A stretch of 59,127 nt of DNA, filler included. It is 3 parts of 3 records of this genome, joined end to end, with 100 filler letters (N's around TTAATTAATTAA, not from the genome) between each part and the next. Parts side by side here need not be neighbours in the genome. Positions count along the whole stretch, not along the records: positions 15,629 to 41,524 come from DRR378314_1644; 2 more parts are not named here. One strand, given 5' to 3'. The first letter of the stretch is position 1. Every line of letters starts with the position of its first letter. The position numbers were made by a program, and so were the translations under genes. Below the pieces are notes generated by a model. The model did not search any database. It saw only the letters and a program-made list of their open reading frames with translations, and was not told the DNA's origin. Shown piece after piece: positions 15,630 to 36,671 of the stretch.

Positions 15630-18600
15630 GGCAGCTATTTCTATTTCAACATCTGCTCGAACCCCGATCTGGTGGATGATGTGGGCATGTTCCTGTTGCG
15701 CCATACCGGCAACGACAAGGATTTCCTGTCAACGCGGGTCAGCCATGTGTTTGACCTCAAAGGCCCGTCGATCAACCTGCAAACCGCCTGTTCGACCTCT
15801 TTGGTGGCGATCCACTATGCCTGTCAGGCCCTACGTGCGGGCGAAATTGACATGGCGCTCGCCGGTGGGGTGACTATCGAATTGCCGCATGGGCGCGGCT
15901 ATGAATTCAAGGAAAATGAGATCCTGTCACCCGACGGGCATTGCCACGCCTTTGACCACCGCGCGCAGGGTACGGTTTTTGGATCGGGGGCAGGGGCGGT
16001 TGCCCTGCGCCGTCTATCGGACGCGATTGCGGATGGGGATCACATCTGGGCCGTGATCAAAGGATCTGCTGTCAACAATGATGGAGCGGCCAAAGCGGGC
16101 TATCTTGCCCCCTCGGTCGACGGTCAGACACAGGCCATTGCGGCGGCACTGGACGCGGCTGGCGTTGCTGCGCAAAGCATCGGTATGGTCGAATGTCATG
16201 GCACAGGCACCTATCTGGGTGATCCGATTGAGGTTGCCGCCCTGACCGAAGCCTACCGTGCGGAAACCGATGCCGTTGATTTCTGTCGCATCGGGTCGGT
16301 GAAAACCAACATCGGCCATCTGGATACCGCTGCAGGTGTTGCGGGGCTCGCCAAGGCGACGCTGGCGTTGCACAACAAACAAATGCCACCTTCGCTGGGG
16401 TATGAGGCACCAAACCCGGCAATCCCGTTTGAGGGCTCTCCCTTCCGCGTCAACGACAGCCTTGCGGATTGGGCTGCCGGTGATACACCACGCCGCGCCG
16501 CGATCAACGCGCTGGGCGTGGGGGGCACCAATGCTCATATGATCCTGGAGGAAGCGCCGGAACGCACAGCCTCCGAGGAAAGCGACTGGCCGTTTCATGC
16601 GCTGGTGGTTTCAGGTGCGTCGAAAGCGGCGCTGGATGCCAATACCGCTGCCCTTGCCGCACATCTACGCGCGCATCCTGAACAGCCATTGGCGGATGTT
16701 GCACATACGTTGAAAAATGGCCGACGTGCCTTTGAAAAACGCCGTGTGGTGGTGGCGGAAACCCATGCCGAAGCCGCCGATCTGCTGGACGGCGCGGATA
16801 CCCGTCGCGTCTTTACCCATGAGGCGCTTGGTGAAAACCCTGAAGTCGTCTTCATGTTCCCCGGTGGCGGGGCGCAATATGCGGGCATGGCACGGGACCT
16901 TTACGAAACCGAGCCGGAATTTGCAGAATGGATGGACCGTGGGTTGGATCATCTGTCGCCGCAGCTGGATTATGACATCCGCGCCCTGTGGCTGCCCGAG
17001 GTGGGGCAGGCTGATGCGGCTGCGGAACGGTTGAAGCAGCCATCGGTGCAACTGCCGCTGATCGCTATTGTCGAATATGCGCTGGCAAAACTCTGGATGT
17101 CATGGGGCGTGCAACCCGCCGCGATGGTAGGCCATTCCATGGGCGAAAATGTTGCGGCCTGCCTTGCCGGTGTGATGACATTTGAAAACCTGATAGATCT
17201 TGTTCTGCTGCGCGGTCGGTTGTTTGACGAGGTGCCCGCCGGTGGCATGTTGTCCATCTCGGCCCCGTTGTCGGCCATTGAGCCACTGCTCGGCGAGGAT
17301 CTTGATATCGCGTCGATCAACGCACCTGAACTGATCGCGGTTTCTGGCTCGCAGGCGGCGCTGGCTGCCATGCAGGGCCGGCTTGACGCGGCTGATATTG
17401 AATATCAGCGCATCGCCATCGATATCGCCGCGCATAGCCGCATGCTAGAGCCGATCCTTGCACGCTACCGCGCCTTTTTGGCCAGCATCGACTTGCAAGC
17501 ACCTAATATGCCGTTTGTCTCCAACCGCAGCGGCGCACAGATTACCGCGCAGGAGGCGACAAGCCCCGACTACTGGGTCGCCCAGCTGCGCAATACCGTC
17601 AACTTTGCCGATTGTATCACCACGCTCGCGGCCCCGCGCAAACGGATCTACCTTGAGGTCGGGCCGGGCAAGGCCCTGTCCGCCCTTGCGCAGATGCACC
17701 CTGATGTTGCGCCCGTACAGGTGCTGTCGACCCTGCGCCATCCCGATCAGGAAATTGCGGATGATGCCTATTTTATTTCGGTGATTGGCCGTCTTTGGGC
17801 CTGTGGGCTTAACGCCGATTGGTCCCAGATCTGGGGAGAGGCGAAGCGCAACCGTGTTATTTTGCCCACCTATCAATTCCAGCGCAGCCGCTATTTCATC
17901 GAAGCAGGGCAAGCGGCGCTTGCACCTGTGGCTGCGCCGCTTACGCGCAGCGATGCCATCGAAGACTGGGGCTCTGTCCCCGCATGGCGTCCGCGATTTG
18001 CCGATACGGATATGGATGTGACACGCGATCTGGGGGATGTCCCCTTGACGTGGTTGATGTTTGCGGATGGTGCGGGTCGTGCTGCGCCCGCCCTTCAACG
18101 TCTGAAAGATGCCGGTCATAGGGTTGTTTCCGTGCGGGCGGGTGATGCTTTCGCCCAGGCGGATGATGCGACCTATACGCTTGCCCCCGAACAGGGCCGT
18201 CAAGGCTATGACCAGCTGATCACCGACCTGAAACAGCGCGACTTGCTGCCTGACCGGATTGGGCATTTCTGGCTGACCGATGATCATCTGCCCCCGCGCG
18301 CAGGATCGTCCGAATTCGACCGCAATCTGGAACAGGGATTCTGGAGCCTGACCTGGCTTGCGCAGGCCCTGTCCGAGGCCGAATTTGATAAACCCCTGCA
18401 CCTCCTCGCCTTTACAGCAGGTGCGGCGCAGGTCCGCGAGGAGGCCGTTCCCCACCCCGAAGAGGCGCTGATTGCCGGACCTGTCGGTGTCTTTGCCCGC
18501 GAAATGCCCGATGTAACCTGTGCGCAGATTGATCTGGAGCCGGTTGCGGCGGCTGTTGCCCCGTCCAAAGGGTGGTTTTCAAAACCTGTCGAAACCCCGC

Positions 18601-21600
18601 CTGATGACAGTCTGACAGAGCCCTTGTTGGAAGAGCTGTTGGCCGTGCCTGCTAATACCATTGCGGCGCTGCGCGGGGCGAAACGTTTTGAACAAACTTA
18701 TCGCGACATTGGATTGCCAGAGGCAGAGGCACCGGCGTTCCGCGATGGCGGCACCTATCTGATCACCGGCGGTTTCGGTGGCATCGGCCTGACCTTGGCA
18801 GCCGATATTCTGGGACAGCATAATGCCCATGTGGTGCTTTTGTCGCGTGACCCGATGCCGGAACGGCAAGCCTGGGAAGGATACCTCAAGACCCACGCGA
18901 CCACCGATCGCACCGCGCGGCGAATGCATTCGGTGATGCGTCTTGAAACACTGGCGCAAGCGCGGGGCGGCACCATTGAGGTGGCGCAGGGCGATGTGGC
19001 CAACCTTGCCCAGATGCGCCGGGTGACACAGGATTTGACCACGCGCCATGGTGGGCTGACGGGGGTGATCCACGCCGCTGGTACACTTGATGATGCGCCT
19101 CTGCTGGCCAAATCGGATGCCAGCATTGACGCGGTATTGTCGCCCAAGGTTCAGGGGCTGCGCGTCCTTGATCAATTGCTGCCCGATGGCACGTTGGAAC
19201 TGATGGTGCTGTTTTCCTCTACCTCGACGGCCACACGGGCCGCAGGGCAGACCGACTATGTCGCCGCCAATGCCTGGCTGAATGCTTTCGCTGCTGCACG
19301 GCGCAACGGCAAAACCAAAGTGGTTGCGATCAATTGGGGCATCTGGTCGGATGTGGGCATGGCCGCCAAGGCGCTGAATGGTGCGGCCAGCGACGTCCTG
19401 CCGCCGCGCCCCGTTGAGGCCGCATTTCTGAAAACCGTGGGTGCGGATGCGGCGGGTGATCTGGTGTTCACTGCCCCTTTCACCACGCAAGATTGGCTGC
19501 TGGACCAGCACCGCACGGCACAAGGGCAGGCGATCCTGCCTGGCACCGGCTATATCGAACTGCTGGCCGAGACGGCCAAGGCACAGGGCATGACTGGGTT
19601 TGACATCCAAGACCTGTATTTCCTGCGCGCCATGCCGGTGGAGGAAGACAGCAGTCGTCAGATGCAGGTCACCCTGCGCCCGGACGGCAAGGGCTTTGCT
19701 GCCGAAATGCGCAGTGATTGCCGGTTGCAGGGCAGGGATGGTTGGCAACTGCACGCGCAAGCCGCCCTGAACCCGCTGACCGGAGTTGCGCCGGAAGATG
19801 TTGATATCGCATCACTTTCCGCGCGATGTGACGTGGCTCAGCAAAGCACTGCCGAGGCCCGTCTGAAATCCCCTCAAGAGGCGCATTTGAAATTCGGCCC
19901 CCACTGGCATGTCCTGTCCGAAACCCGGATGGGCAGGGGCGAGGGGGTGGCCAAGCTGACCTTGCCTGACGCCCTGTGCGGCGCTGAAAACGCGCCAGTG
20001 CTGCATCCCGGACTGATGGACCTGGCCACTGGCTGGGCCATCGCGCTGGTGCCGGGATATGGCGCGACCCACCTTTGGGTGCCGGTGTCTTATGGATCAA
20101 TCCGTGTTTATGCGCCGCTGCCGGATATGGTGTATTCTTGGGTACGCTTGCGCGAAGGGCACGGTGATTTTGCCCGTTTTGATGTGACAGTCTGTGACCC
20201 GGAAGGCCGCGTTCTGGTCGAAGTCAGCGATTTCGCGATGAAACGGCTTGAGGGCGACCTTGCAGCAATGCCTTTGACCACAGCCGAAGTGACTTTCACC
20301 GATGACAGCGCGGATGATGACAACCGCAGTCCCGCCGAGGAACAGCTGGCCTATCTGTTGTCGCAAGGCATCCGCGCCAGTGAGGGGCCGGAAGCCCTGC
20401 GCCGTGCGCTTGCGCTGGGCAAGCCGCAGGTCATGGTTTCATCGCTGCCCTTGCAGGGGTTGATCGAGCGCGCCAATACGCCAGCGGTTGAACAGGCTAC
20501 TTCAGGTCAGAGTTTCGAACGTCCCGATCTGGATGGTTCTTTCGTCGCACCGCGCAACGGTATTGAGGAACGTCTGGCCGGGATCTGGTCGAACCTGCTG
20601 GGCATCAGTCCGGTTGGGGTTGAGGACAGCTTTTTCGACCTTGGCGGGCATTCTCTGATTGCCGTGCGCCTGTTTGCGGCGGTGAAACGTGAGTTCAAGG
20701 TGGAATTCCCGATATCAGTACTTTTCGAGGCCCCTACAATTGCCAAATGCGCTGCCCTGATCGCGGCGGAAACCGGCGATCTGGGAGAAGCTTCGGAGGG
20801 GGAGACCCCCGCCGCTGCGCCAGAGAAATACGAATTTCTTGTGCCGCTGAACCAAAGCAATCAGCGCGATGCGCCACCCTTGTTCATTGTTGCGGGCATG
20901 TTTGGCAACGTGCTGAACCTGCGCCATCTTGCGCTGCCTTTTGCATCGGAACGGCGGGTGTTTGGTGTGCAGGCACGGGGGCTGATCGGGGAAACCGAAC
21001 CGCATCGCGATGTGGCCATCGCTTCCCGTGATTATCTGGCAGAAATGCAGCGTATGCAGCCAGAGGGGCCCTATCTGATTGCAGGGTATTCCGGCGGCGG
21101 GATCACGGCTTATGAAATGGCCAGACAATTGCGCGATGCGGGCCATGAAGTGGCTGTGGTGGCGATGTTTGACACGCCGCTGCCGGTACGCCCGTCGCTC
21201 AGCAGACCCGATAAGGCATTGATCAAGCTGGCTGAGCTGAAATCGAAAGGACCAGCATATCTGGTCGAATGGGCACAGAACCGCTGGGCTTGGGAAATGC
21301 GCCAACGCAACGAAGATGCTGCGCCTGATGCATCTGCGGGGGCGGAGTTCAACAACCTGAAAATTCAGGATGCCTTCCTTGAAGCGGTGGGGAAATACCA
21401 GACACCCGATTGGGACGGCCCGCTCACACTGTTCCGTCCGGCGCTTGATTTGCATTGGCCGGTGACGGGGGGCAGGTTTGTCAGCAAAGAGCGCGAATAT
21501 GTGTTCGAGGACAACGACTGGCGTCGATATGCGCCGCAGACTGAGGTGATCGAGGTGCCCGGTGATCATGACAGTATGATGCTGGCCCCAAATGTCACCA

Positions 21601-21686
21601 CTTTGGCGCAGGAGCTGCGCGAAGTGATCGCACGGGCACTAGACGATGAATCGGATGATTGGCAACAGGCAACGGCGGCACAATGA
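15630..21686 (+). CDS. Type I polyketide synthase KS-AT-KR-DH-ACP-TE, 5'-truncated
   Basis: Frame is open from the contig edge. KS: NDKD, LQTACSTS, HGTGT, GHLDTAAG. AT: GHSMG, IAAHS. KR: GGTYLITGGFGGIG, LDD, YVAAN. DH: WLLDQHRTAQGQAILPGTGY and LMD. ACP: FFDLGGHSL. TE: GYSGG and DHDSM. Confidence 0.95.
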   Translation, partial: GSYFYFNICSNPDLVDDVGMFLLRHTGNDKDFLSTRVSHVFDLKGPSINLQTACSTSLVAIHYACQALRAGEIDMALAGGVTIELPHGRGYEFKENEILSPDGHCHAFDHRAQGTVFGSGAGAVALRRLSDAIADGDHIWAVIKGSAVNNDGAAKAGYLAPSVDGQTQAIAAALDAAGVAAQSIGMVECHGTGTYLGDPIEVAALTEAYRAETDAVDFCRIGSVKTNIGHLDTAAGVAGLAKATLALHNKQMPPSLGYEAPNPAIPFEGSPFRVNDSLADWAAGDTPRRAAINALGVGGTNAHMILEEAPERTASEESDWPFHALVVSGASKAALDANTAALAAHLRAHPEQPLADVAHTLKNGRRAFEKRRVVVAETHAEAADLLDGADTRRVFTHEALGENPEVVFMFPGGGAQYAGMARDLYETEPEFAEWMDRGLDHLSPQLDYDIRALWLPEVGQADAAAERLKQPSVQLPLIAIVEYALAKLWMSWGVQPAAMVGHSMGENVAACLAGVMTFENLIDLVLLRGRLFDEVPAGGMLSISAPLSAIEPLLGEDLDIASINAPELIAVSGSQAALAAMQGRLDAADIEYQRIAIDIAAHSRMLEPILARYRAFLASIDLQAPNMPFVSNRSGAQITAQEATSPDYWVAQLRNTVNFADCITTLAAPRKRIYLEVGPGKALSALAQMHPDVAPVQVLSTLRHPDQEIADDAYFISVIGRLWACGLNADWSQIWGEAKRNRVILPTYQFQRSRYFIEAGQAALAPVAAPLTRSDAIEDWGSVPAWRPRFADTDMDVTRDLGDVPLTWLMFADGAGRAAPALQRLKDAGHRVVSVRAGDAFAQADDATYTLAPEQGRQGYDQLITDLKQRDLLPDRIGHFWLTDDHLPPRAGSSEFDRNLEQGFWSLTWLAQALSEAEFDKPLHLLAFTAGAAQVREEAVPHPEEALIAGPVGVFAREMPDVTCAQIDLEPVAAAVAPSKGWFSKPVETPPDDSLTEPLLEELLAVPANTIAALRGAKRFEQTYRDIGLPEAEAPAFRDGGTYLITGGFGGIGLTLAADILGQHNAHVVLLSRDPMPERQAWEGYLKTHATTDRTARRMHSVMRLETLAQARGGTIEVAQGDVANLAQMRRVTQDLTTRHGGLTGVIHAAGTLDDAPLLAKSDASIDAVLSPKVQGLRVLDQLLPDGTLELMVLFSSTSTATRAAGQTDYVAANAWLNAFAAARRNGKTKVVAINWGIWSDVGMAAKALNGAASDVLPPRPVEAAFLKTVGADAAGDLVFTAPFTTQDWLLDQHRTAQGQAILPGTGYIELLAETAKAQGMTGFDIQDLYFLRAMPVEEDSSRQMQVTLRPDGKGFAAEMRSDCRLQGRDGWQLHAQAALNPLTGVAPEDVDIASLSARCDVAQQSTAEARLKSPQEAHLKFGPHWHVLSETRMGRGEGVAKLTLPDALCGAENAPVLHPGLMDLATGWAIALVPGYGATHLWVPVSYGSIRVYAPLPDMVYSWVRLREGHGDFARFDVTVCDPEGRVLVEVSDFAMKRLEGDLAAMPLTTAEVTFTDDSADDDNRSPAEEQLAYLLSQGIRASEGPEALRRALALGKPQVMVSSLPLQGLIERANTPAVEQATSGQSFERPDLDGSFVAPRNGIEERLAGIWSNLLGISPVGVEDSFFDLGGHSLIAVRLFAAVKREFKVEFPISVLFEAPTIAKCAALIAAETGDLGEASEGETPAAAPEKYEFLVPLNQSNQRDAPPLFIVAGMFGNVLNLRHLALPFASERRVFGVQARGLIGETEPHRDVAIASRDYLAEMQRMQPEGPYLIAGYSGGGITAYEMARQLRDAGHEVAVVAMFDTPLPVRPSLSRPDKALIKLAELKSKGPAYLVEWAQNRWAWEMRQRNEDAAPDASAGAEFNNLKIQDAFLEAVGKYQTPDWDGPLTLFRPALDLHWPVTGGRFVSKEREYVFEDNDWRRYAPQTEVIEVPGDHDSMMLAPNVTTLAQELREVIARALDDESDDWQQATAAQ

Positions 21687-22690
21687 TGGCAGTTTCAAAC
21701 CCTAAAGTACTGGTGGTTTTACTGAACTACCGGACTGCTGAAATGACCCTGCGTGCCGCTGAGGCGGCGCTGGCTGATATGCCTGCGGGGGCTGAACTGG
21801 TGATTGTCGACAATGCCTCTGGTGACGGCTCAGCCGGTGTGCTGACCAACGCCATCACTGAACGGGGATGGGATGCGCAAAGTCGTGTGCGCCTGATCCT
21901 GTCAGAGGTGAACGGCGGTTTCGGCGCAGGCAATAACCTTGGTTTTAAGGCGGGGATGTCGGATGACAGCCGCCCCGATTATTTCTATGTGCTGAACTCG
22001 GATGCCTTTCCTGATCAGGGCTGTTTGCCGCATCTGATCCAGCATTTGGAAACCACACCCAAGGCTGGCATGGTCGGCAGCCATGTGCGCGGCGAGGATG
22101 ATCAGCCCCATACAACTGCCTTTCGCTTTCCGTCCATTGCGGGCGAGTTTGAGGGGGCGGCGCGCACCGGCCCGATTACCCGTTTGCTGAAATCCTATGT
22201 TGTCGCGCCTGATTTGCCGCAGACCGCCACACAGGTGGATTGGGTGGCGGGGGCCAGCGTGTTGATGCGGGCCAGCATGCTGGATGAAATCGGCATTTTC
22301 GACGAAACCTTCTTTCTTTATTTTGAGGAAACAGACCTGTGCAAACGGGCTGCGGTGGCAGGCTGGGAATGCTGGTATCTGCCGCAGGTCGGTGTGGTGC
22401 ATATCGGGTCCGTGTCCACCGGCATGAAAGAATGGCAACGCATCCCTGATTACTGGTTCGCTTCGCGCCGGCATTACTTTGTGAAAAACCACTCTCGCGC
22501 CTATGCGGCGGCGGCTCTTCTTGCCAAACTTGCGGGGGGGGCAATCCACCACCTGCGCTGCAAGATATCTGGCGCAACGCCGCAAGATCCGCCCGGTTTT
22601 AACCGCGACCTTTTGCGTTTCGGCCTTGGCTTGCCCCTGCGCCGTGACACCCCTGTGACCCGCCGTTCCGTATCGAAGGAAAACTCATGA
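21683..22690 (+). CDS. Glycosyltransferase family 2
   Basis: VVLLNY, IVDNASGDGS, NGGFGAGNN, LNSD, FFLYFEETDLC; ATGA overlap with the PKS stop. Confidence 0.92.
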   Translation: MMAVSNPKVLVVLLNYRTAEMTLRAAEAALADMPAGAELVIVDNASGDGSAGVLTNAITERGWDAQSRVRLILSEVNGGFGAGNNLGFKAGMSDDSRPDYFYVLNSDAFPDQGCLPHLIQHLETTPKAGMVGSHVRGEDDQPHTTAFRFPSIAGEFEGAARTGPITRLLKSYVVAPDLPQTATQVDWVAGASVLMRASMLDEIGIFDETFFLYFEETDLCKRAAVAGWECWYLPQVGVVHIGSVSTGMKEWQRIPDYWFASRRHYFVKNHSRAYAAAALLAKLAGGAIHHLRCKISGATPQDPPGFNRDLLRFGLGLPLRRDTPVTRRSVSKENS

Positions 22691-25600
22691 CCGCCACCTT
22701 CAATCCTCAAGCCTTTGATGCCCTTTTGATGGGCGATGAATCCCTGACCATTGCCTGTGGTGATATGATGTTGGCGGGCGGACATCGCCTGTCGGCGGTG
22801 ATTACCCGTGATGCCACGGTGCGCAACTGGGCCGAAGACAAAGGGCTGCCGGTCTTTGATCAGGCCAAGGAAATAGTGGGGGCCGGCCTTGCTGCGGATT
22901 GGTTGCTGTCCATTGCCAACCTGCGGATGATCCCGGCAGATGTGCTGGCGGTACCCACCAAGGGCGCGATTAACTTTCACGATGGTCCTTTGCCGCGCTA
23001 TGCAGGGCTGAACACCCCGGCATGGGCGGTGATCAACGGCGAGACCTCTCATGGCGTCAGCTGGCACATGATCGAGGGTGGCGTGGATGAGGGTGACCTG
23101 CTCGCGCAAAAAGAGGTGGCAATTGCGGCGGATGAGACGGCGTTCAGTCTGAACTCCAAATGTTACGCTGCCGGGATGGAGAGCTTTGCCCGCGTCCTGT
23201 CCCAATTAGAAACCGGTGGCTTGGAGCGCACACCTCAAGACCTGAGCCAGCGCAGCTATTTTGCCCGCGATCAGCGGCCTGAAAATATGGGTGTGCTGAA
23301 TTTCGACAAAGCTGCGGCACAGTTGGATGCATTGGTGCGGGGGCTGGATTTCGGCACCTATTGGAACCCGCTGGGCACAGCCAAACTTGCCCTTGAAAAT
23401 GCGTTTTACAGTATTGGCGGGCTTGAGCCCGTCGCGGGGCAGAGCGGTGCCGCAGGCGAGGTTCTGGCGGTTGATGCAAAGAGCGTCACAATTGCCACTG
23501 CGACCACCGCTGTGCGGCTGCGTGGATTGACCACATTGGACGGCACATCGGTGAACCCGACCAGCCTATGTGCGGTTGGCGATGTTTTGGCGTCGGCAGA
23601 TCTGCCTGAGCTGGAGGTCAAGGACGAAGCCATCTGGCGCAGCGCCCTGAGCAAGACGGCACCGGTTCCCGCCCCCTTTGTGACGGCGCAATCCGGCGAT
23701 GCAAATTGGGGGCAGCGGGCATTGTCGCTGCCTGCCGGGCTGTCTGCTGCGCAGGTAATCACTGCCGCATCCGTGGTCCTGTTGAATGGGGTCGAGGCCG
23801 GGCAGGGTGTGTTTGCATTGAAGTCGGCAAACACCCACCGGTTGGCCGCTGACTGGGTTCCACTGCGCATCGCCGCAGATGGCGCAGACGCTGTGCAAAC
23901 AGTGCATGATGCCGTGGCCCGCCAGCTGGAACGTGCGCAATCCTCTGCCGGTATGGCGCAGGACTTGCTGTCCCGCGATCCGGCGATCGTCGCGCAGGGC
24001 CAGCCGCAGATCGGTTTCTCGCTGGCGGCTGAACCTGTTGCATCCGCTGCGTTGACCTTGTGTCATGACGGCAAAGCGGCGCAGCTGATCTATGATAAAT
24101 CACGCCTGAGCGATGCGGCACTTGATCTGATCTCTGCCCGTATCGAAGCGGCGGCTACTGCCCTTGCCAATGCGCAACGCTGCGACGAACTGCGCCAGAT
24201 GCCCGCAAGCGAAGCGGCGCTGTTGCAAGGCTGGAACGCCACCGAGCGTGCCTATACCCCCAGCACCATCCATGCGGCATTTGAGGCACAGGTGGTGCGG
24301 ACCCCAGAAAGCGAAGCAATTGTTTTCGAAGGCGGAAGCCTTTCTTACGCGGCGCTGGATGCCCGCGCGAACAAACTGGCCCATGTGCTGCGTGCCCAAG
24401 GGGCCAGACCCGGCACACCCATCGGCTTGTTCACCACACGTGGCCTTGATCTGCTGGTCGGTGCGCTGGGCATCCTCAAGGCGGGCGGGGCTTATGTGCC
24501 GCTTGATCCGGCCTATCCTGCGGACCGCATCGCGCATTACATCAGCGACAGCGCCGCACCGTTGATTGTGACGCAAAGCGGCTTGGCCGCACAGCTGCCC
24601 GCCCATAGCGCAGAGGTTATTGCACTGGACAGTGATCCGCGTATCGCGGCGGCCCCTGAGGCAGAGCTTGAGGCTACGGCGACGCCTGATGATCTGGCCT
24701 ATCTGATCTATACTTCCGGTTCCACCGGCACGCCCAAGGGCGTTATGGTCAGCCACGGCAATGTCGCGAACTTCTTTGCCGGGATGGATGATCGCATCGA
24801 CCATGAGGCCGGCGCGGTCTGGCTTGCTGTCACCTCGCTCAGCTTTGATATTTCGGTGCTGGAACTGTTCTGGACCCTTGCACGCGGGTTCAAACTGGTG
24901 CTGGCCGGGGATGAAGCGCGCACTATGGTGTCAAACGGACCCATCGCCGTTTCGGATCGCAAGGTCGATTTTAACCTGATGTATTGGGGCAATGACGATG
25001 GTGTCGGCCCCAAGAAATACGAACTGCTGCTGGAAGGTGCCAAATTCGCGGATGCCAATGGGTTCAACGCGGTCTGGACGCCAGAACGGCATTTCCATGC
25101 CTTTGGTGGTCCTTACCCCAACCCGTCGGTGACCGGCGCAGCGGTGGCTGCGGTGACGCAGAACCTTTCGGTACGTGCCGGGTCTTGCGTGGCGCCGCTG
25201 CACCATCCCGCGCGGATTGCTGAAGAATGGGCGGTGATCGACAATCTGACCAACGGGCGGGTTGGCCTTGCCATCGCCAGCGGCTGGCAGCCGGATGATT
25301 TTGTGCTGCGCCCGGAAAACACACCACCCGCCAACAAGCCCGCGATGTATGCGGCCATCGACCAGCTGCGCCAGATGTGGCGCGGCGAGCCGGTGGAGTT
25401 TCCTAAACAGGACGGCACCATGCACGCTGTTGTCACCCAACCGCGCCCGGTGTCCAAGGAACTCCCGGTCTGGGTGACCACGGCGGGCAATCCGCAGACC
25501 TGGAAAGAGGCGGGCGAGATTGGCGCAAATGTGCTGACCCATCTTCTGGGGCAATCGATTGAAGAGGTCGCGGGCAAGATCAAGATCTATCATCAGGCTT

Positions 25601-27240: not shown

Positions 27241-27944
27241 GCATCATGCCGGGGGCGGTGCATCGGGCGCAGACGCAGGCCGTGATTGCCGCGCTGTTTG
27301 ACGATGCGCATGATATCTCTGTGGCGGTTGGGGTGCGTGATCCACGGGCCCCACAACCGCCGACCCTCGCCGATGAGGCGGCCCATCTGCGACAGGCGCT
27401 TGAACCGCGCCAACGGGAGTTTGCCGCAGGACGGGCCGCGGCGCGGGATGCGATGGCGCAGCTGGGCCTTGACCCTATGGCCATTCCCGCAGCCGCAGAT
27501 CGCGCGCCCCTTTGGCCGCAGGGGGTTCGGGGCAGCATTTCGCATAGCAACTCACTTTGTGCTGCGGTACTTACCCGTGATGCGGCATCGCTGGGCGTTG
27601 ATATCGAAGCAGACATGCCGCTGGATGCGGATCTGCTGTCCACCATCTGTTCAGATCACGAGCAAGCCCGTATCGCCGGACCGGACCAGCTTTGGCTGGC
27701 GAAACTGATCTTTTCCGCCAAAGAAGCCAGCTATAAGGCGCAATACCCGCTGACGCAGATGCTGTTTGGCTTTGACCATCTCGACGTGGCGCTGGACTTG
27801 CCGGGGCGGGCATTTACCGCAACTTTCCTGAAACCGGCGGGGGATTTCGTGGCGGGCGACAAACTGCCCGGGCGGTTCGATCAATTTCAGGGTCACCTTG
27901 TCACGGCAGCTTGGGCTGATAAATCTTTGTTCAAAGGAGCCTGA
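27237..27944 (+). CDS. 4'-phosphopantetheinyl transferase (EntD/Sfp type)
   Basis: EFAAGRAAAR, PLWPQGVRGSISHS, LGVDIE, FSAKEASYKA; ATGA overlap with the NRPS stop. Confidence 0.92.
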   Translation: MSIMPGAVHRAQTQAVIAALFDDAHDISVAVGVRDPRAPQPPTLADEAAHLRQALEPRQREFAAGRAAARDAMAQLGLDPMAIPAAADRAPLWPQGVRGSISHSNSLCAAVLTRDAASLGVDIEADMPLDADLLSTICSDHEQARIAGPDQLWLAKLIFSAKEASYKAQYPLTQMLFGFDHLDVALDLPGRAFTATFLKPAGDFVAGDKLPGRFDQFQGHLVTAAWADKSLFKGA

Positions 27945-27948
27945 GTTG

Positions 27949-28893: not shown

Positions 28894-31406
28894 CCGGTTT
28901 GGCGACATTGTTTTCAGTGCTGATGGTCGGCCACAGCCTGTTTGGCCCAACGGGGCCCAGTATGCTGGAACAGGCGCTGCTGGCGGGCACCGGCGATGCA
29001 AAGGTTCAGGCGCAGATCATCAACGGGGCACCGCTGCGCTATAATTGGGAGAAATCCGACACAGCCGAAGGAGTTGACGCCCGCGCGGTGCTGCCTGCAG
29101 GGGGCATCAGCCATCTGATCCTGACCGAAGCGGTGCCATTGGAGAACCACACGCAGTTTTCCGAGACAGATGTTTACGCGCAGGCCTTTGCCGGTCTGGC
29201 GACCGCTGCCAATCCGAAGGCACATATCTATGTGCAGGAAACATGGCACAGTTTGAAAAGCGGCACTGGTGAAGCGGTGGAACATGATGCCAAGGCGGAT
29301 ATTCCCTGGCGGGTCCGGCTGGATCAGGATTTGCCGGTCTGGGAAAATATCGTGGCACAGATTGCGGCGGGCACCCGTGCGCAGACCGCTACGGTTTCGC
29401 TGATCCCGGCGGGACAGGCGATGGCACGGTTACATGCTGAAATTGCGGCGGGGCAGGTGGCGGGGATCACGGATATTGCCGCACTTTTTGACGATGACAT
29501 CCACCTCAATGACACGGGCCATTACTTTGTGGCAATGGTGCAATATGCGACGCTGACGGGGCAATCTCCCCTCGGCCTGCCGGTCGATTTCAAAGACCGG
29601 TTTGGCAAGGCCTATGACACCCCGGATGAGGATACGGCCCGTATTTTACAAGCCATCGCATGGGGGGCGGTGCAGGCCTATGGCACCCTGCCTGCAAAAC
29701 CGGTTTCCCTGACAAAAACAACGGGGCGTGCCAGCATGGCCCCTGCGGCACCGACCGGCCCGCCGAAAGACCTGAGCCTGCCCCCTGAAGGGGCGGTGCA
29801 GGGCAGTAACGCTGTAGCGATCGGTTTGGCCTCTGTCGCGGATTGGAGCACGCAACTGCCCTTCCTGGATCTGATGAAAACCGCGCGCCCCTGGATCGGC
29901 CATAAGGCGGGCCAATGGGGCGGTATGGAGCGGGCGCAGATGCGCGCAGAAGGGGTTCTGGATGCTGATGGCTGGCCGCTGAAAATGCCGCGTAGTCTGG
30001 GCAGTATTGGCACATTGATCCTGACCGACATGCCCGAAGCGGCCACATCGTTGAAAGGGCGTTACCGGCTGAAGTTTGACGGGAAAGGCGTGATCGAAGT
30101 TTCAGGGCGTGCTGAAAAGGTGCGCTATGGGAAGGGAGAGGTCACATTTGACTACACACCGGGGCCGGGCAGTGTCGACATTCGCATCCAGCGCATCAAC
30201 ACCACCAACCCGCCACGCAACATCAGCGTGGTGCATGGTGACAATATCCGGCGTTTTGATCAGGGCGCGATATTCAACCCCGCATGGACCGCCCGCATTG
30301 GGCAGTTTCGTGCGTTGCGGTTTATGGACTGGGCAGAAACCAATAACAGTACGCTGTCGGATTGGGCCGAACGGCCGCAGGTCGATGACGTCACCTATGT
30401 GGACGGGGTGCCGGTTGAGGTGATGATTTATCTGGCCAATGAGTTGGAGAATGATGCGTGGTTCAACATGCCCCATCTGGCGGATGATGCCTTTATCCGC
30501 GCCTATGCCGAACTGGTCCGCGACAGGCTGGACCCGGAATTGACCGCCTATGTCGAGTTTTCGAATGAGGTGTGGAACTGGCAATTCTCACAGGCGGTCT
30601 GGGCGGATGAAAGCGGCTTGGCCCGCTGGGGCGAAAAGGACAAATGGATGCAGTACTACGGGCTGCGGGGCGCCGAAGTGGCACGGATCTGGTCAGAGGT
30701 TTTTGCCGGGGAGCCAGAGGATCGGCTGGTCAATGTGGTCTCTTCACAGACCGGTTGGCTGGGCTTGGAGAGTGAAGTCTTCACCGCGCCATTGGCCGTG
30801 GCCGAAGGGCTGGCAGCGCCGGTTGACGCCTTTGATGCCTATGCGGTCACAGGGTATTTTGGCGGGGTTCTGGGTTTGGAGGACCGTCAGGAGATGGTGA
30901 AAACTTGGTTGGCGGACAGTGCTGCTAAGGCGCAAGCTCAGGCAGAGGCGCAGGGGCTCACGGGGGAGGCGTTGCAGACCTATATCGCCACGCACCGCTT
31001 TGACCATGCCACTGAATTGGCAGAGCGCGAGTTGATGAACGGCAGCGTCAGCGGCAACCCCGAGGATACCTTGCAGGATCTGATTGGCCGCGTGTTGCCG
31101 CATCACGCGCAGGTGGCCCGTGCGCATAACCTTGATCTGGTGATGTATGAGGGGGGCACCCATATCGTCGGCATTGGCGGTTTGGTCGAGGATACGGATT
31201 TGACCGAATTTATGCATCACCTGAATTATTCTGCCGCAATGGGCCGTCTTTATAGGGCGCTGCTGGATGGCTGGAAAGCGGTCGGTGGACAGTTGTTCAA
31301 TGCCTATTCAGATGTCTACGCACCGACAAAATGGGGCTCCTGGGGGGCGCTGCGCCATCTGGATGACAGCAACCCGCGCTGGGATGCATTGGTCGATTTC
31401 CAATGA
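28890..31406 (+). CDS. Two-domain protein: SGNH-like domain (paralog of upstream gene), Pro/Ala linker, putative carbohydrate-active TIM barrel
   Basis: N-terminal VGHSL...YVQETWH...LIPAGQAMA...DDIHLND. C-terminal RFMDW, YVEFSNEVWN, LVMYEGGTH, KWGSWG. ATGA overlaps at both ends. Confidence 0.7.
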   Translation: MTGLATLFSVLMVGHSLFGPTGPSMLEQALLAGTGDAKVQAQIINGAPLRYNWEKSDTAEGVDARAVLPAGGISHLILTEAVPLENHTQFSETDVYAQAFAGLATAANPKAHIYVQETWHSLKSGTGEAVEHDAKADIPWRVRLDQDLPVWENIVAQIAAGTRAQTATVSLIPAGQAMARLHAEIAAGQVAGITDIAALFDDDIHLNDTGHYFVAMVQYATLTGQSPLGLPVDFKDRFGKAYDTPDEDTARILQAIAWGAVQAYGTLPAKPVSLTKTTGRASMAPAAPTGPPKDLSLPPEGAVQGSNAVAIGLASVADWSTQLPFLDLMKTARPWIGHKAGQWGGMERAQMRAEGVLDADGWPLKMPRSLGSIGTLILTDMPEAATSLKGRYRLKFDGKGVIEVSGRAEKVRYGKGEVTFDYTPGPGSVDIRIQRINTTNPPRNISVVHGDNIRRFDQGAIFNPAWTARIGQFRALRFMDWAETNNSTLSDWAERPQVDDVTYVDGVPVEVMIYLANELENDAWFNMPHLADDAFIRAYAELVRDRLDPELTAYVEFSNEVWNWQFSQAVWADESGLARWGEKDKWMQYYGLRGAEVARIWSEVFAGEPEDRLVNVVSSQTGWLGLESEVFTAPLAVAEGLAAPVDAFDAYAVTGYFGGVLGLEDRQEMVKTWLADSAAKAQAQAEAQGLTGEALQTYIATHRFDHATELAERELMNGSVSGNPEDTLQDLIGRVLPHHAQVARAHNLDLVMYEGGTHIVGIGGLVEDTDLTEFMHHLNYSAAMGRLYRALLDGWKAVGGQLFNAYSDVYAPTKWGSWGALRHLDDSNPRWDALVDFQ

Positions 31407-32236
31407 AAACCTCGGTTCTGATCCCCGCCCATAACGAAGCGGATTACCTGCCGGCCTGTTTGACGGCCTTGCTGACCTCTGAGCCGGTGGCAGGGGGCGT
31501 GCAGGTGGTGGTGATTGCCAATGGCTGCACGGACAATACCGCAGAGATTGCCCGTGAGTTCACCGCGCAGGCCGAGGAAAAGGGCTGGCAGCTGCTGGTG
31601 CTGGATGTTGCGCAGGGCGGCAAGTTGAATGCCTGGAACAAGGGTGAGGCGGCGGCGTCGGGTGAGGTGTTGATTTATCTGGATGCGGATGTGGTGGTCT
31701 CGCCGCAGGTGGTGGTGCAAATCACCGATGTGTTGGATGTGGACACGCCACGATATGCCAGCGGGCGGGCCAATGTGACCTTGACAGGGGAGGATACGCT
31801 GACGCGGCATTACACGCGGTTCTGGTTGACCACACCCTTCATGGTGCATGGTGTGCCCGGTTTCGGGGTGTTTGCGATGAATCGCGCGGGGCGTGCGCGT
31901 TGGGGCGACTGGCCTGATATTATTTCGGATGATACCTTTGCGCGGCTGAACTTCACACCCGCAGAACGGCATAGTGTGCCCGCAGACTACGACTGGCCAA
32001 TGATCGAAGGGTTCACCCGTCTGGTACAAGTCCGCCGCCGTCAGGACATTGGCGTGGCAGAGATCGAAACCGGCTATCCGGAACTGATGGTCAACGACGA
32101 TACCCATGATCAAACGGTGCCGCTGTGGAAACGCGCGCTGAAAGATCCGGTGGCCTTTGTGGCTTTTGCTGCGGTGCGCCTTGCGATCCGCCTGCCAATC
32201 CTGCGCAGCGGCAATCGCTGGGCACGGGGACGTTAG
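31403..32236 (+). CDS. Glycosyltransferase family 2
   Basis: SVLIPAHNEA, NGCTDNT, GGKLNAWN, YLDAD (DxD); stop overlaps the convergent GT4 stop. Confidence 0.9.
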   Translation: MKTSVLIPAHNEADYLPACLTALLTSEPVAGGVQVVVIANGCTDNTAEIAREFTAQAEEKGWQLLVLDVAQGGKLNAWNKGEAAASGEVLIYLDADVVVSPQVVVQITDVLDVDTPRYASGRANVTLTGEDTLTRHYTRFWLTTPFMVHGVPGFGVFAMNRAGRARWGDWPDIISDDTFARLNFTPAERHSVPADYDWPMIEGFTRLVQVRRRQDIGVAEIETGYPELMVNDDTHDQTVPLWKRALKDPVAFVAFAAVRLAIRLPILRSGNRWARGR

Positions 32237-33423
32237 GAGCCGCTGATATGGGCCGCCAGCTTGGCGGCCTCAGTGCTGATGTCATGGCGTTCCAACACGC
32301 GCTGGCGCGCCGCATCGCCCATGGTGGTCAGCTTCTTCAAGGGCGTTTTGGCAAAGACCTCTATCGTATCGGCCAAGGCATCAACGTCCCCCGCAGGCAC
32401 CAGCCAGCCGTGAGTGCCATGCTGCACCAGCTCTGGTGTGCCAGCGATATAGGTGGCGATGACGGGGCGGGCGGCGGCCATGGCTTCCATCACCACCATC
32501 GGCAGTCCTTCGGCAAAGCTCGGCATGACCAGCGCATGGGCGGCGGCAAGTTCGCCGTTCACCCCGGCCTCGTCAAGCCAGCCGGTCAGGGTGACCCGGT
32601 CCTGTAACTTGTGCTCGGCAATCGCGGCCTCGATCAAGCCGCGCATCTCGCCATCTCCGATCAGGGTCAGCTGCACATTGGCCTGCACCTGCGCCAGCGC
32701 CTTGATCACGGCAAGCTGGCCTTTCTGTTCCACCAGCCGCCCGATGGCGACAAGGCGGCGCGGGCCGTCCGGTATCGGGGCCGGGTCTTTAAATTTTTGC
32801 GGTTCAATCCCGCAATGCACCACTTTGATCTTGTCCCAATCTGCGGGCGCGGCCCAGCGGCACAGCTGCGAGCGGCCAAACTGGGTGATCGCAACGGTGA
32901 AATCGGAATGCGCAATCTTGCTGCCCAAGGACAGGGCGCGGGGGGCGTCATATTCTTCCGGGCCATGTACGGTGAAACTGTATTTCGGGCCGTCCAGAAG
33001 GGCGCTGAACATCGCCACAGCGGCAGAATTGGTGCCAAAATGCGCATGGGCATGGGCGACCCCTTCGGCGCGACAGCGTTCCGCAACAAAGGCGGCTTCG
33101 GCTAGATAGATCAGATGGCGCAGTACGCCGACTTCGGAAACCCGGCCAAGGGTGATGGCGGTTTTGGTCGCTTGCCAGAATTGCGCCGCATCGCGTTTTA
33201 CCGCGCGCCAGCTGGCACCGAGCAGATGCTTTTTACCCTCGGCCAACACATATTCCGTGCGCTCTGCTTCATAGCGGTCCTGTGGATCAACCAGAGGATC
33301 ACCGCTGGGACGCATCGCCATGCGAAACACGTCATGGCCTGTGGCTTCAAGCGCGCGAATCTCGCGGCGGATGAAACTCTGTGACGGCTGCGGGTAGGTG
33401 TTCAGAATATATGCAATTTTCAA
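32233..33423 (-). CDS. Glycosyltransferase family 4 (WcaL-like)
   Basis: TTG start giving MKIAYILNTYPQPSQSFIRREI; HAHAHFG, IGRLVEQKG, EGLPMVVMEAMA (EX7E). Confidence 0.9.
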   Translation of the reverse strand: MKIAYILNTYPQPSQSFIRREIRALEATGHDVFRMAMRPSGDPLVDPQDRYEAERTEYVLAEGKKHLLGASWRAVKRDAAQFWQATKTAITLGRVSEVGVLRHLIYLAEAAFVAERCRAEGVAHAHAHFGTNSAAVAMFSALLDGPKYSFTVHGPEEYDAPRALSLGSKIAHSDFTVAITQFGRSQLCRWAAPADWDKIKVVHCGIEPQKFKDPAPIPDGPRRLVAIGRLVEQKGQLAVIKALAQVQANVQLTLIGDGEMRGLIEAAIAEHKLQDRVTLTGWLDEAGVNGELAAAHALVMPSFAEGLPMVVMEAMAAARPVIATYIAGTPELVQHGTHGWLVPAGDVDALADTIEVFAKTPLKKLTTMGDAARQRVLERHDISTEAAKLAAHISGS

Positions 33424-33436
33424 GGTAGGTTTCCGC

Positions 33437-34747
33437 CTATCGGCTTGCGGGATGGCGGGCCTGTCGTGCGGCACGCCCTTGCAAACCGGCCTCGCTGCGG
33501 TCCTGCCAAAGCTTGGCGATGCCTTTGCGCTTTTTCGGATTACGCGTTTCGGGGATCGAAACCACCGGCAGCAATCCTGTTTCACGCTGCATTTGCCGTG
33601 CGGTGCGGATTACAGGGCGGCGCAGTTCCAGCAGGAATGCCAGCACCAGACCCAGCACTGCGGACGCGGCCACACCCAACAGAAGGCGTTTTTTGCGGCT
33701 CATGCTGACCGGGTATTCCGGCACACGGGCTTCTTCCAGGGTGATAAACCGCTCGCCGCGCGCAGCGTTTTCCAGCGTAAACCCAACCTCGGCTTCGCTG
33801 CGACGGGTTGCAATATCGCTTAGACGCTCGCGCAGTTGCGTTGTGCGCCGTTCAAATTCGGCCAGAGTCCGTTCCACCTCTGGACGGGTTTCGATGCTGG
33901 CGCTCAGGGCGGCGCGGCGGTCCAGCAAAAGCTGGCGTTGGGTGTTCAGACTGTCCAGCAGGCGGCCAAGTTCTTCTTCCTCGCGCTGCACGGTTGCGGC
34001 GCGGGTGTTGCCGCTGCGGTCAATGTTTTCAAGGGCAAGCTGCGCTGAGATGATTTCGCGATCCAGCGTCAGCAACGCGTCATTCAGGCTGCCCAGTTCC
34101 GAGCGGCTGAAATCAAGCGAACCCTCGATGGAAATGTCATTGGCGCTGCGAAACTCTGCCAAAGCAGTGTCCAATGCCGCAATTTCTGCCTGCACGGTTT
34201 TTTCCTGCTCTTCAAAGAAAGCAAGGGTTTCACGGGTTTGCAGCTGGCGCTGCGAGGTTGCAAGGGCGCGGGTCTGATCGGCAAACAGATGGGCGATGGC
34301 CTGCGCAGTTTCGGGCGAATCCATTGTGGCGGTGATGGTCAGAACCGCAATGGCCCCATCATCGGAAAACCCTTCACGTACTGCCGCAACACCGGTGATG
34401 GTGACAGCCTGACGCAACAGGTCAACCTTGTCGGACATGCCGGGCCTGCTGGAGTCGCCATAGAGGCCGAATTGTTCAATGACCTTTACCAGATTGTCAT
34501 GGGCCATCAGCTGTTGTTCGATCAGTTGCAGCCGCCGTGCCGCAGAGCTTTCGACGGTGGAGCGGGCCAGCTCATCAGAGATCTGTGGCTGTTCAATCTG
34601 CAAAACTTCGGAAGATACATAGGTATGGGGCGTGAGGACGGCCCAGATCAGCGATCCGAAACAACCCGCGATGATCACAGCCGAGATCACACCCACGCGA
34701 CGGCGCAGCATGTCCAGAAAGTCGGCCATTGAAAAGATCGGTCCCAT
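33437..34747 (-). CDS. Polysaccharide co-polymerase / chain-length determinant (Wzz/GumC-like, no kinase domain)
   Basis: Two TM helices flanking a long periplasmic coiled coil, with a Pro-rich motif (ARVPEYPVS) before TM2. Confidence 0.85.
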   Translation of the reverse strand: MGPIFSMADFLDMLRRRVGVISAVIIAGCFGSLIWAVLTPHTYVSSEVLQIEQPQISDELARSTVESSAARRLQLIEQQLMAHDNLVKVIEQFGLYGDSSRPGMSDKVDLLRQAVTITGVAAVREGFSDDGAIAVLTITATMDSPETAQAIAHLFADQTRALATSQRQLQTRETLAFFEEQEKTVQAEIAALDTALAEFRSANDISIEGSLDFSRSELGSLNDALLTLDREIISAQLALENIDRSGNTRAATVQREEEELGRLLDSLNTQRQLLLDRRAALSASIETRPEVERTLAEFERRTTQLRERLSDIATRRSEAEVGFTLENAARGERFITLEEARVPEYPVSMSRKKRLLLGVAASAVLGLVLAFLLELRRPVIRTARQMQRETGLLPVVSIPETRNPKKRKGIAKLWQDRSEAGLQGRAARQARHPASR

Positions 34748-34922: not shown

Positions 34923-35879
34923 TTAGGAATAGCGCGGGATGGAGTCTGCGCGTGCCCGGTTCAAGACGACGCCCAGCAGGGGCACTTGATTGTTCAGCAG
35001 ACGTTCGCATTCCATCAGTTCGCGGCCCATTGTCTGGGTGCCATCCGAAACCAGCAGCACACCGTCAAGCTGTGGCAGAAAGGCAGAGACATCATCATGG
35101 GTCAGCATTGCAGGCAGATCGTAAAGAACAATTTCCGGCTGCAACGCGGCGCGCATGCGTTCCATGGTATGGGCGGTCTCGGCTGACTGAAGGGTTTCAG
35201 CCGCTTCAGCGTCCGCGCTATTGTTCAGCCCCAAAGCCAAAGTGTCGCTGACCTTGACCATGTGATCGCCGATGGGCGCATGACCCATCAGAAAATCCCG
35301 CATGGAGCCGCGTGGGGTGATGTCAAACGCCTTGGCGATGCCGGGGCGGCGCAGGTTGAAATCCATCAGCACCGTGCGCGAACCCTTTACCCGTGACAGG
35401 CTAAGCGCGAGGTTCATCGCGGTGAATGTATTGCCGCAGCCCGACGTCGGGGTGGTGATCCCGATATTGGTCCAGCCGTGTTCCTGGGTGATTTGGCGCA
35501 GCCTTGTGCGCAGCTGGTCAAAGGCGCGCACAGATGCGCTGTCGCGGGCCGCATCAACTACGGGCAAGGCGGTGTTATCCTTGCGGCTGGTGCCGGGATC
35601 AACCTGATCCAGCTCGTGCCAGCGGGGCAGGTTGGTGTCAGGTGCATAGCTTTTGGGTGATGCGGGGGCCAAAGCGGTTTGGACATGTGATTTGACCGTT
35701 GCGGGCACAATGCGCGCATCGGTTTTGTCGCCATTGTCATTCACCAGCGCCCGACGTGGACGGATGCTGTGGCGCATGCCGGCTTTCGACATTACGACTG
35801 GCGTGTCCAACATTTCAGCGTGGAGATCCTCTGCGGTATGTAAATCACGCATTTCTGTCTCCTTCGGAGGTTTGGCCAT
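34923..35879 (-). CDS. CpsD/CapB-family BY-kinase-like ATPase with degenerate catalytic motifs
   Basis: AFDQLRTRL, Walker A region TPTSGCGNT, A' MDFNLRRP, Walker B YDLPA, DGVLLV, LLGVVLN. Confidence 0.85.
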   Translation of the reverse strand: MAKPPKETEMRDLHTAEDLHAEMLDTPVVMSKAGMRHSIRPRRALVNDNGDKTDARIVPATVKSHVQTALAPASPKSYAPDTNLPRWHELDQVDPGTSRKDNTALPVVDAARDSASVRAFDQLRTRLRQITQEHGWTNIGITTPTSGCGNTFTAMNLALSLSRVKGSRTVLMDFNLRRPGIAKAFDITPRGSMRDFLMGHAPIGDHMVKVSDTLALGLNNSADAEAAETLQSAETAHTMERMRAALQPEIVLYDLPAMLTHDDVSAFLPQLDGVLLVSDGTQTMGRELMECERLLNNQVPLLGVVLNRARADSIPRYS

Positions 35880-35927
35880 AAGACCTGTTTACACCTTCTT
35901 GTGCCATCTCAACATCATGTCCCATAC

Positions 35928-36671
35928 TTAGTGACCCGTCGGGCGCAAAACCACGCCAATGGTTTTGAAAAGGATGGTCAGATCCAGTTTCAGTGTCAGG
36001 GACCGCTCATAGGCGCTGTCTACTTCGTTGCGATAGGTAAAACGTTCACTGTTGCGCGCCGAGACCTGCCACAGGCCGGTAATGCCGGGCTTCACAGCGT
36101 TGTAATGGGTCGCATCACCATACATTTCCAACTGCTCGGGCATCATTGGGCGCGGGCCGACAAGGCTCATGTCGCCAATCAGGACGTTAAGCAGCTGGGG
36201 CAGCTCGTCCATTGAGGTTTTGCGCAGCAGATGGCCCAGAGGCGTGATGCGCGGATCATTGCGCAGCTTCTGGATCTCGTCCCATTCGCGCCGCATTTCA
36301 GGGTCTTTGGCGAGATATTCTTCAAGAACCTGATCTGCATTCGGCACCATGGTGCGCAGCTTCAGGATCGAGAACCGCTTGCCCGCTGAACCCAGACGCT
36401 CCTGCGTATAGAAAGGATTGCCGCCGCTCACCCAGAGAGCCAGCGCCGACAGGGCGATGATCGGCAGGGAAAAGGGCAGTGTCAGCAAAACAAACAACAC
36501 ATCCATGACACGTTTGCCAAGGTGGCGATACAGGTAGACCGGGTCGGGCTTGGCCGCCAATGCTGCATCCCAAACCGGGCTGCGGCGAACCACGGCAGAG
36601 TCAGCAAAAGCCGTTCCATTGGCAAATGGAAACATGCCAAAATCGGCAGAATTCGTTACATTGTCTTTCAT
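35928..36671 (-). CDS. Priming sugar-phosphate transferase (bacterial sugar transferase family)
   Basis: KRVMDV + TM, KLRTM, DPRIT, LRKTSMDELPQLLNVLIGDMSLVGPRP, KPGITGLWQV. Confidence 0.93.
   Translation of the reverse strand: MKDNVTNSADFGMFPFANGTAFADSAVVRRSPVWDAALAAKPDPVYLYRHLGKRVMDVLFVLLTLPFSLPIIALSALALWVSGGNPFYTQERLGSAGKRFSILKLRTMVPNADQVLEEYLAKDPEMRREWDEIQKLRNDPRITPLGHLLRKTSMDELPQLLNVLIGDMSLVGPRPMMPEQLEMYGDATHYNAVKPGITGLWQVSARNSERFTYRNEVDSAYERSLTLKLDLTILFKTIGVVLRPTGH

Follow-up and report, generated by a model that had tools for sequence, protein, structure and literature searches.

A predicted formyl-glycine polyketide/peptide assembly line within a roseobacter exopolysaccharide locus as a candidate source of an acyl substituent for a surface polysaccharide

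Organization of the locus

The window analysed here (the whole stretch of 59,127 nucleotides) is made up of three unrelated pieces, with runs of N (15529-15628 and 41525-41624) between them. The left part of its middle piece (25,896 bases) is occupied by a locus in which a polyketide synthase (PKS) and a non-ribosomal peptide synthetase (NRPS) lie among genes for exopolysaccharide (EPS) synthesis. A protein named from Sulfitobacter pacificus shares 99% identity with the NRPS, and the nearest genome, G001, aligns to the whole piece at 98.8% without gaps. An earlier sequence-only reading had placed at 15630..36671 an assembly line that would decorate a surface glycan; the gene identities, order and strands that it gave were borne out by open reading frame (ORF) calls and Pfam/NCBIfam scans, as follows.

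15630..21686, + strand: type I PKS with ketosynthase (KS), acyltransferase (AT), ketoreductase (KR), dehydratase (DH), acyl carrier protein (ACP) and thioesterase (TE) domains in the order KS-AT-KR-DH-ACP-TE, 5' end cut by the contig edge (Pfam, open frame, full ORF in G001, motifs kept in 84 homologues)
21683..22690, + strand: family 2 glycosyltransferase (GT2) GT2a, which accompanies the assembly line more consistently than any other neighbour (Pfam; in 68/69 long loci)
22687..27240, + strand: single-module NRPS with a formyltransferase (F) domain, a degenerate condensation (C) domain remnant, an adenylation (A) domain interrupted by a luciferase-like monooxygenase (LLM), and a peptidyl carrier protein (Pfam; TIGR04020 over cut-off)
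27237..27944, + strand: 4'-phosphopantetheinyl transferase (PPTase) (Pfam/NCBIfam)
27949..28893, + strand: SGNH-fold (DUF4886-like) putative esterase with an N-terminal hydrophobic leader, here with twin Arg, and invariant GHSL and DxxH
28890..31406, + strand: SGNH domain with no leader, joined to a glycoside hydrolase (GH) barrel of clan-A type with invariant E560 and E754 (structure model, alignment)
31403..32236, + strand: GT2 glycosyltransferase GT2b (Pfam)
32233..33585 (ORF limits; probable start near 33423), - strand: GT4 glycosyltransferase, EpsE-like (Pfam/NCBIfam)
33437..34747, - strand: Wzz-like chain-length protein of polysaccharide co-polymerase type (TIGR03007 E 7e-24, below cut-off)
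34923..35879, - strand: BY-kinase-like protein with GCGNT as Walker A and the catalytic lysine missing (match below curated cut-off)
35928..36671, - strand: priming phosphoglycosyl transferase, orthologue of the Phaeobacter inhibens chromosomal exoY (Pfam; primer mapping in orthologous loci)

ATGA stop/start overlaps were found, as previously described, at 21683, 22687, 27237, 28890 and 31403, and GT2b and the GT4 gene converge stop-to-stop with the bases TTAG (32233-32236) in common. The PPTase/SGNH junction has no overlap, the stop ending at 27944 and the ATG lying at 27949 after a gap of 4 nt. The PKS frame stays open up to the contig edge and lacks its N-terminus because the contig ends there; G001 holds the full ORF of 2165 codons and, upstream of it and just past the contig edge, a Wzy-like gene, a WecG-family glycosyltransferase and one further GT2-like gene. 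A priming transferase, several glycosyltransferases and a co-polymerase are present in the locus, the co-polymerase and the kinase with matches below curated cut-offs, and no Wzx, Wzy or Wza was found inside the window. A promoter and terminator scan gave signal no better than chance. In family scans the 11 proteins of the locus gave no match to efflux, receptor or resistance families, in line with the earlier description.

Relation to a known gene cluster and a studied EPS module

The adjacent PKS, glycosyltransferase, NRPS and PPTase genes correspond to the four-gene cluster of roseobacters described by Martens et al. (2007) and restated in PMC4337385 as conserved, of secondary-metabolite type and uncharacterised in product; it occurs in 28/57 genomes of PMC4337385 (papers are cited here by PMC number, each for the excerpts consulted). 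The earlier suggestion that the locus is this cluster and that its product is unassigned thus stands. The excerpts of PMC4337385, by contrast with the arrangement seen here, do not mention surrounding EPS genes.

The chromosomal exoY wzx/wzy EPS module of P. inhibens was studied by Lipsman et al. 2024, who tabulated as its genes the locus tags c05260-c05310, c05360 and c05380-c05410 (PMC10984933). The tags skipped in that table are exactly the positions of the SGNH-GH, SGNH, PPTase, NRPS and PKS genes. The published exoY primers match the priming gene in two genomes (G1273 and G1275) with 0-1 mismatch, and the 16-gene locus order in both fits those 16 tags and equals the order of the locus studied here. 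In one methods sentence exoY is given as c05320, still within the locus (PMC10984933), whilst c05350 is among the PKS/NRPS tags of PMC4062626, where the tags look partly swapped. Deletion of exoY decreased attachment, abolished staining with the lectins ConA and SBA, and removed the SBA-positive filaments seen in algal co-culture (PMC10984933). According to its authors no sugar-modification genes were detected, and the word 'polyketide' is absent from the text and the searched supplement of PMC10984933.

Fourteen of the 16 genes of this module are present in G001, with an orthologous priming gene and the same order; the G001 locus differs in lacking Wzx (c05290) and the GT2 c05400, which are also absent in L029, L034, L036 and L062. 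The lineage of G001 appears to have lost its cognate Wzx. One PF13440 flippase and two PF02563 genes for outer membrane polysaccharide export (OPX) proteins are encoded elsewhere in G001. The Wzy-like protein matches Wzy_C at E 1e-4, below cut-off, and its orthologue was assigned COG3307 (PMC10984933). The literature searched, which had subscription journals including the 2007 paper outside its coverage, gave neither an assigned product nor a PKS/NRPS-EPS link, and nothing on the cluster was found in the excerpts of PMC5030684, PMC13392355 and PMC4359443. Both the cluster and the EPS module are known, and the link between them is apparently unpublished in the literature searched.

Association of the assembly line with glycan genes

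Synteny was examined in the best 80 of 589 confirmed relatives, with flanks of 10 kb and with locus gene profiles built from these same 80 loci. Among the 69 loci of at least 20 kb, 68 contained two or more glycan genes besides GT2a; GT2a itself was present in 68, SGNH in 60, Wzy in 54 and Wzx in 53. In an even sample of 301 genomes of the family, the NRPS was detected in 101 and the Wzy-like protein in 110, with both in 94, the NRPS only in 7, the Wzy-like protein only in 16 and neither in 184. The two genes were within 60 kb on one contig in 77 of the 94 genomes, farther apart in 5 and on different contigs in 12; in three of the five distant cases, which were inspected, the NRPS still lay among 7-9 glycan gene families. 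Whether the line always travels with wzx/wzy/wza and the SGNH pair had been put forward as a check. A Wzy-like gene was present in 94/101 NRPS-positive genomes, and SGNH was missing in 45/101.

Nine of the 16 Wzy-only loci were inspected and had the same glycosyltransferase families with no such NRPS; AT3 acyltransferases were present in two, a carbamoyltransferase in one and a protein with an A domain and four carrier domains in one. The line behaves as an add-on, in that related EPS loci can lack the NRPS and in some cases have different genes for acylation. Other NRPS-like proteins within related EPS loci have the layouts A-PCP x4 (PCP, peptidyl carrier protein; L106:142-3552) and C-A-T-TE (T, thiolation domain; L004:665-4543), and an XrtD exosortase homologue adjoins six loci of the EPS family (L002, L007, L104, L107, L109 and L110).

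The proposed glycan link of the line is supported by synteny and co-occurrence, and by orthology to an EPS module that has been studied experimentally. We consider it probable (about 0.6) that the locus directs a Wzx/Wzy-type surface polysaccharide and that the embedded line supplies a small oxidised acyl group, built from formyl-glycine and one extender, to its repeat unit.

The unit might instead be a structural part of the polymer, namely a primer, a linker or an aglycone glycosylated by GT2a, that anchors or joins the chain in the manner of RkpA/WcbR. The position of GT2a, wedged between PKS and NRPS, and its presence in 68/69 loci are consistent with this, as is the coincidence of strong Wzy orthologues with the NRPS (92/92 above 320 bits, a cut set post hoc), which would be expected of a polymerase dependent on the unit. 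However, the locus has a standard priming transferase, and one short module with neither an enoyl reductase nor a fatty-acyl loader would hardly yield a lipid. In addition, some NRPS-free loci contain GT2a homologues, and in L003 and G915 the line has no GT2a nearby. RkpA and WcbR are iterative, lipid-forming PKSs of capsule loci that have no NRPS partner. They and Pks13 resemble the locus enzyme as type I PKSs serving a cell-surface glycan, and differ in their lipid products and in having neither a formyl-glycine NRPS starter nor an LLM. A structural role is accordingly judged quite unlikely.

Occurrence outside the family and copies without glycan genes

The module is rare outside the family, with 5/351 genomes of the class positive, 3 of which fall within the family, and 4/301 genomes of one other order, one of these without the LLM. 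Of the loci outside the family that were examined, 10/11 are glycan loci; a metagenome scan with the NRPS of G561 gave three short contigs with unusable context, for which reason L128 was left out of this count. In Deinococcus actinosclerus (L121/L126, CP029777.1, 283768-313506) a free formyltransferase, an A(LLM)-PCP protein and a KS-AT-KR-DH-ACP-C protein lie among Wzy, flippase-like, PglF-like, DegT (amino-sugar) and priming genes. The terminal C domain of this PKS (HHLAAD) suits transfer to an acceptor, and the PKS as a query retrieved only one close cluster. In G561 (L122-L123), an F-A(LLM)-T starter within an EPS locus feeds C-A-T-nitroreductase and C-A-T modules followed by an alpha/beta-hydrolase, and no PKS is present within 40 kb. 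The EPS locus of G561 also holds a carbamoyltransferase, two GDSL proteins and a heparinase II/III.

Six of the seven NRPS-only family genomes were inspected. G286 carries PKS-GT2a-NRPS on a contig of 5.7 kb, and in G095 the NRPS adjoins DegT, GT2 and acyltransferase genes. Several observations weigh against a role of the line in glycan decoration, among them G191 and G262 (99-100% complete), which hold the PKS/NRPS with all motifs intact between cobalamin genes and terC and gave no Wzy, GT2a or WecG orthologue with the queries used. A clade of four (L007, G035, G177 and G1235) has a longer PKS-NRPS hybrid with no glycan genes nearby, laid out as F-A(LLM)-T plus KS-AT-KR-DH-ACP-C-A-T-TE plus an alpha/beta-hydrolase, whose product is a candidate free metabolite; the glycan-free copies of both kinds show that the line can persist without this polymer. 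Furthermore, G001 has no cognate Wzx, an orthologue of which was not found genome-wide with the query used; the best solved relatives of the TE are ordinary NRPS/PKS thioesterases and its sequence has no transferase hallmark; no structure of the polymer or of any product was found in the searched literature; and the genomes are related, such that the counts given above overstate independence, with the 80 loci being those of the closest relatives only. G262 retains SGNH at its cobalamin/terC site, the A domains of both G191 and G262 have TPY in place of TPS, and a second hybrid, which includes an aminotransferase domain, lies near two of the hybrid-clade loci (L007, L096-L097, L100-L101 and L139-L140).

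These observations bear on the possibility that the line releases a free small molecule, perhaps glycosylated by GT2a, as a signal or defence compound, its site in the EPS locus reflecting co-regulation with the sessile state. Such a molecule is favoured by the intact Ser-Asp-His triad of a TE resembling releasing enzymes, by the glycan-free copies that stay intact in G191, G262 and the hybrid clade, and by movement of the PKS-GT2a-NRPS block into different glycan loci (L009 and G1238). Nevertheless, the loci have no conserved family of transporters, resistance proteins or regulators in common, and the glycan linkage persists through gene rearrangement and reappears beside other downstream modules and in other phyla. 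In a 36-row tree, which was midpoint-rooted and had a long Deinococcus branch, G191 and G262 were sisters within a glycan-linked clade (support 100/99) and the four hybrids formed one clade (100/96) with glycan-linked rows nearest. As the glycan-free copies are nested in this manner, they look like two derived cases. PKS/NRPS genes occurring often without EPS genes had been named as the observation that would speak against a surface-glycan role; such copies exist (G191, G262 and the one clade), although only as a minority. We therefore regard a free product as unlikely, and a siderophore or antibiotic cluster was rejected as the default interpretation on the grounds that no receptor, pump or resistance gene is conserved.

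Domains of the assembly line and candidate products

The A-domain code of the NRPS is DILQMGMIWK, and all 91 homologues have DILQxGM(I/V)WK, which we take to be a glycine code. The C domain is a decayed remnant. In the PKS, which has a single KS with Cys-His-His intact and places the KR ahead of the DH, the KS motifs GNDKDF and QTACSTS were present in all of 84 aligned homologues; these motifs are presumably typical of KSs that accept amino-acyl units. The DH His/Asp and KR Tyr/Asn residues were likewise invariant across the 84 homologues, and the TE triad Ser-Asp-His was present in nearly all rows that cover the TE. A pseudogene was rejected, all catalytic motifs being intact. The proposal of one NRPS step followed by one PKS step is thus supported by the glycine-type code, the active-site motifs and the hybrid-type KS. 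The one-module starter layout was found in 74 of the best 150 representatives (50% clustering); the family to which this starter belongs is large and unstudied.

The AT motif is AAH (IAAH/VAAH) in 84/84 homologues, unlike both HAFH (malonyl) and YASH (methylmalonyl), and its best solved match (top PDB match) is ZmaA. The AT of ZmaA has a GAAH motif and takes hydroxymalonyl-ACP (PMC4207774). The AAH lid motif is common to ZmaA and the locus AT; in contrast to ZmaA, no extender-synthesis genes were found among the conserved neighbours of the locus, with no genome-wide search for them. The PKS extender may differ from plain malonyl.

The LLM matched TIGR04020 with 469 bits against a cut-off of 244 and was invariant in homologues. 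Its best solved relative is PuwE (6KET, E 1e-97), an enzyme with a hydroxylating role. Two targets can be envisaged, the C-alpha of formyl-glycyl-PCP and a later beta-ketoacyl-ACP. The insertion site of the LLM in the A domain is the same as in three C-A(LLM) modules that were compared, all with glycine-like codes, and the LLM is retained where no PKS follows (G561; P0205). For these reasons C-alpha appears to be somewhat the likelier target, whilst the relationship to PuwE keeps the beta-ketoacyl-ACP in consideration. MtaG/MelG have been proposed to hydroxylate the C-alpha of N-acyl-glycine within amide-forming C-A-MOX-A-T-TE modules (MOX, monooxygenase; PMC11411415). The locus NRPS shares with these the A domain split by a monooxygenase and the glycine-type code, and with the modules of this type that were compared the insertion site, yet it is a starter with formyl as its N-acyl group, is followed by a PKS, and has an F domain and C remnant and no TE in place of that terminal layout. 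MupA, by comparison, requires a beta-ketoacyl-ACP and acts in trans (PMC10952193); the alpha-hydroxylases MupA and OocM belong to the same LLM family (TIGR04020), but the locus LLM lies in cis inside the A domain and no ACP-KS0 bimodule is present.

The plain N-formyl-4-aminobutenoyl product that had been suggested is doubtful, given the non-malonyl AT motif in all 84 homologues and the invariant LLM. Candidate products are a 4-formamido-4-hydroxy-enoyl group, the corresponding aldehyde and a 2,3-dihydroxy-4-formamido acyl group, with 2-substitution possible.

The SGNH proteins

Neither SGNH protein had a Pfam, NCBIfam or PDB sequence match at default limits. A structure model of the 838-aa SGNH-GH protein (pLDDT 87.5) resembled the DUF4886/SGNH structure 4I8I in its N-domain (Z 21.5, rmsd 2.9, 229 aligned) and GH51-type barrels in its C-domain (Z 23.9, rmsd 3.4, 292 aligned). 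The small SGNH protein is a paralogue of this N-domain (34% identity), and Ser-Asp-His on the SGNH fold was found from motifs and model. A hydrophobic leader was present in 39/39 small SGNH proteins, 25 of them with twin Arg, and in 0/33 SGNH-GH proteins with a clear start. All 56 SGNH-positive genomes among the 301 were also NRPS-positive (56/56), and the SGNH query had no match in the other 45 of the 101 NRPS-positive genomes. In G001 a second SGNH-GH protein (L161:4491-8057), which has 1189 aa, no leader, two DUF4214 domains and RTX repeats, is unlinked to the locus, whereas in G216 a GH-RTX form adjoins its locus and has an altered SGNH motif.

SGNH-fold proteins take part in the O-acylation systems AlgI/J/X and PatA/PatB, and the earlier reading had pointed to AlgX/AlgJ and PatB as polysaccharide O-acyltransferases of this fold. 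On such a route the acyl group would be exported and then transferred to the polymer in the periplasm by the SGNH proteins, as by AlgJ/AlgX or PatB. The resemblance lies in SGNH-fold proteins within a polysaccharide locus, and the Ser-Asp-His residues, the leaders of the small proteins and the strict nesting of SGNH in NRPS-positive genomes would all accord with such transfer. However, Pfam scans of the window and G001 found in the locus neither an MBOAT nor an AT3 membrane protein that could act as acyl translocator, the pair is optional, and one member is fused to a glycoside hydrolase, which together with the RTX-tailed paralogues fits removal better. Periplasmic SGNH transfer is consequently very unlikely and the O-acyltransferase assignment is left unsupported; an obligatory SGNH transferase was rejected. 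Given its absence, with the query used, from 45/101 NRPS genomes, the pair is probably an accessory esterase/hydrolase acting on the acylated polymer. As the pair is optional, the TE is left as the only constant off-loading part, and would be the only universal off-loading candidate of the line.

Proposed pathway

For decoration of the repeat unit, the following sequence of events is proposed. The PPTase would prime both carriers, the established function of its family. Glycine would be loaded by the A domain and N-formylated by the F domain, as the code and motifs suggest, and the LLM may then hydroxylate the carrier-bound intermediate. One KS extension followed by KR and DH action would give an acyl-ACP with a C4 backbone. 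The TE would pass the acyl group, on the cytoplasmic side, to a hydroxyl group on a sugar, belonging either to the lipid-linked repeat unit or to its nucleotide-sugar donor, with GT2a the likeliest handler of the acylated sugar. This is the weakest step, although acyl transfer to trehalose by the TE of Pks13 provides a precedent for TE-to-sugar transfer. The polymer would be exported by the flippase, Wzy, the co-polymerase and an unlinked OPX protein, and the optional SGNH and SGNH-GH proteins could de-acylate and cleave it for remodelling or release.

A more speculative extension, which we hold to be a long shot, is that the F-A(LLM)-PCP module is a so far undescribed starter that makes from glycine a masked aldehyde, N-formyl-alpha-hydroxyglycyl, and that a 4-formamido-4-hydroxy-enoyl ester, borne by the polymer following a single PKS round, unmasks to a reactive 4-oxo-enoyl group. 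The EPS might then form covalent cross-links with amines and thiols on algae and surfaces as a chemically curing marine glue, with SGNH-GH as release, and the same starter might decorate other glycans across phyla by way of the C-terminated PKS and the oxidising NRPS. If so, the masked aldehyde could shed formamide to give glyoxylyl.

Remainder of the window

The locus is followed at 37183-41524 by a LacI regulator and a polyol/sugar ABC transporter, which are not conserved with it. The unrelated piece at 1-15528 (36 ORFs tested, best Pfam match no better than E 9e-4, with a (CAAA)n repeat at its end) looks eukaryotic or non-coding. That at 41625-59127 carries unrelated housekeeping genes of gammaproteobacterial type (metG end, rnfCDGE-nth, rpoS-nlpD-pcm-surE-truD-ispF-ispD and eno).

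Implications

The cluster is found in about a third of the sampled roseobacter-family genera (101/301 genomes) and has remained without a product since it was described. Because the line sits inside an EPS module, searches of solvent extracts could miss what it makes. This placement renders the question directly testable in P. inhibens, for which a mutant, a lectin read-out and an attachment assay exist. If the proposed decoration is true, the line would represent a modular way of making polysaccharide substituents by PKS/NRPS, and the polymer that bears them is one with an implied part in aggregation between algae and bacteria.

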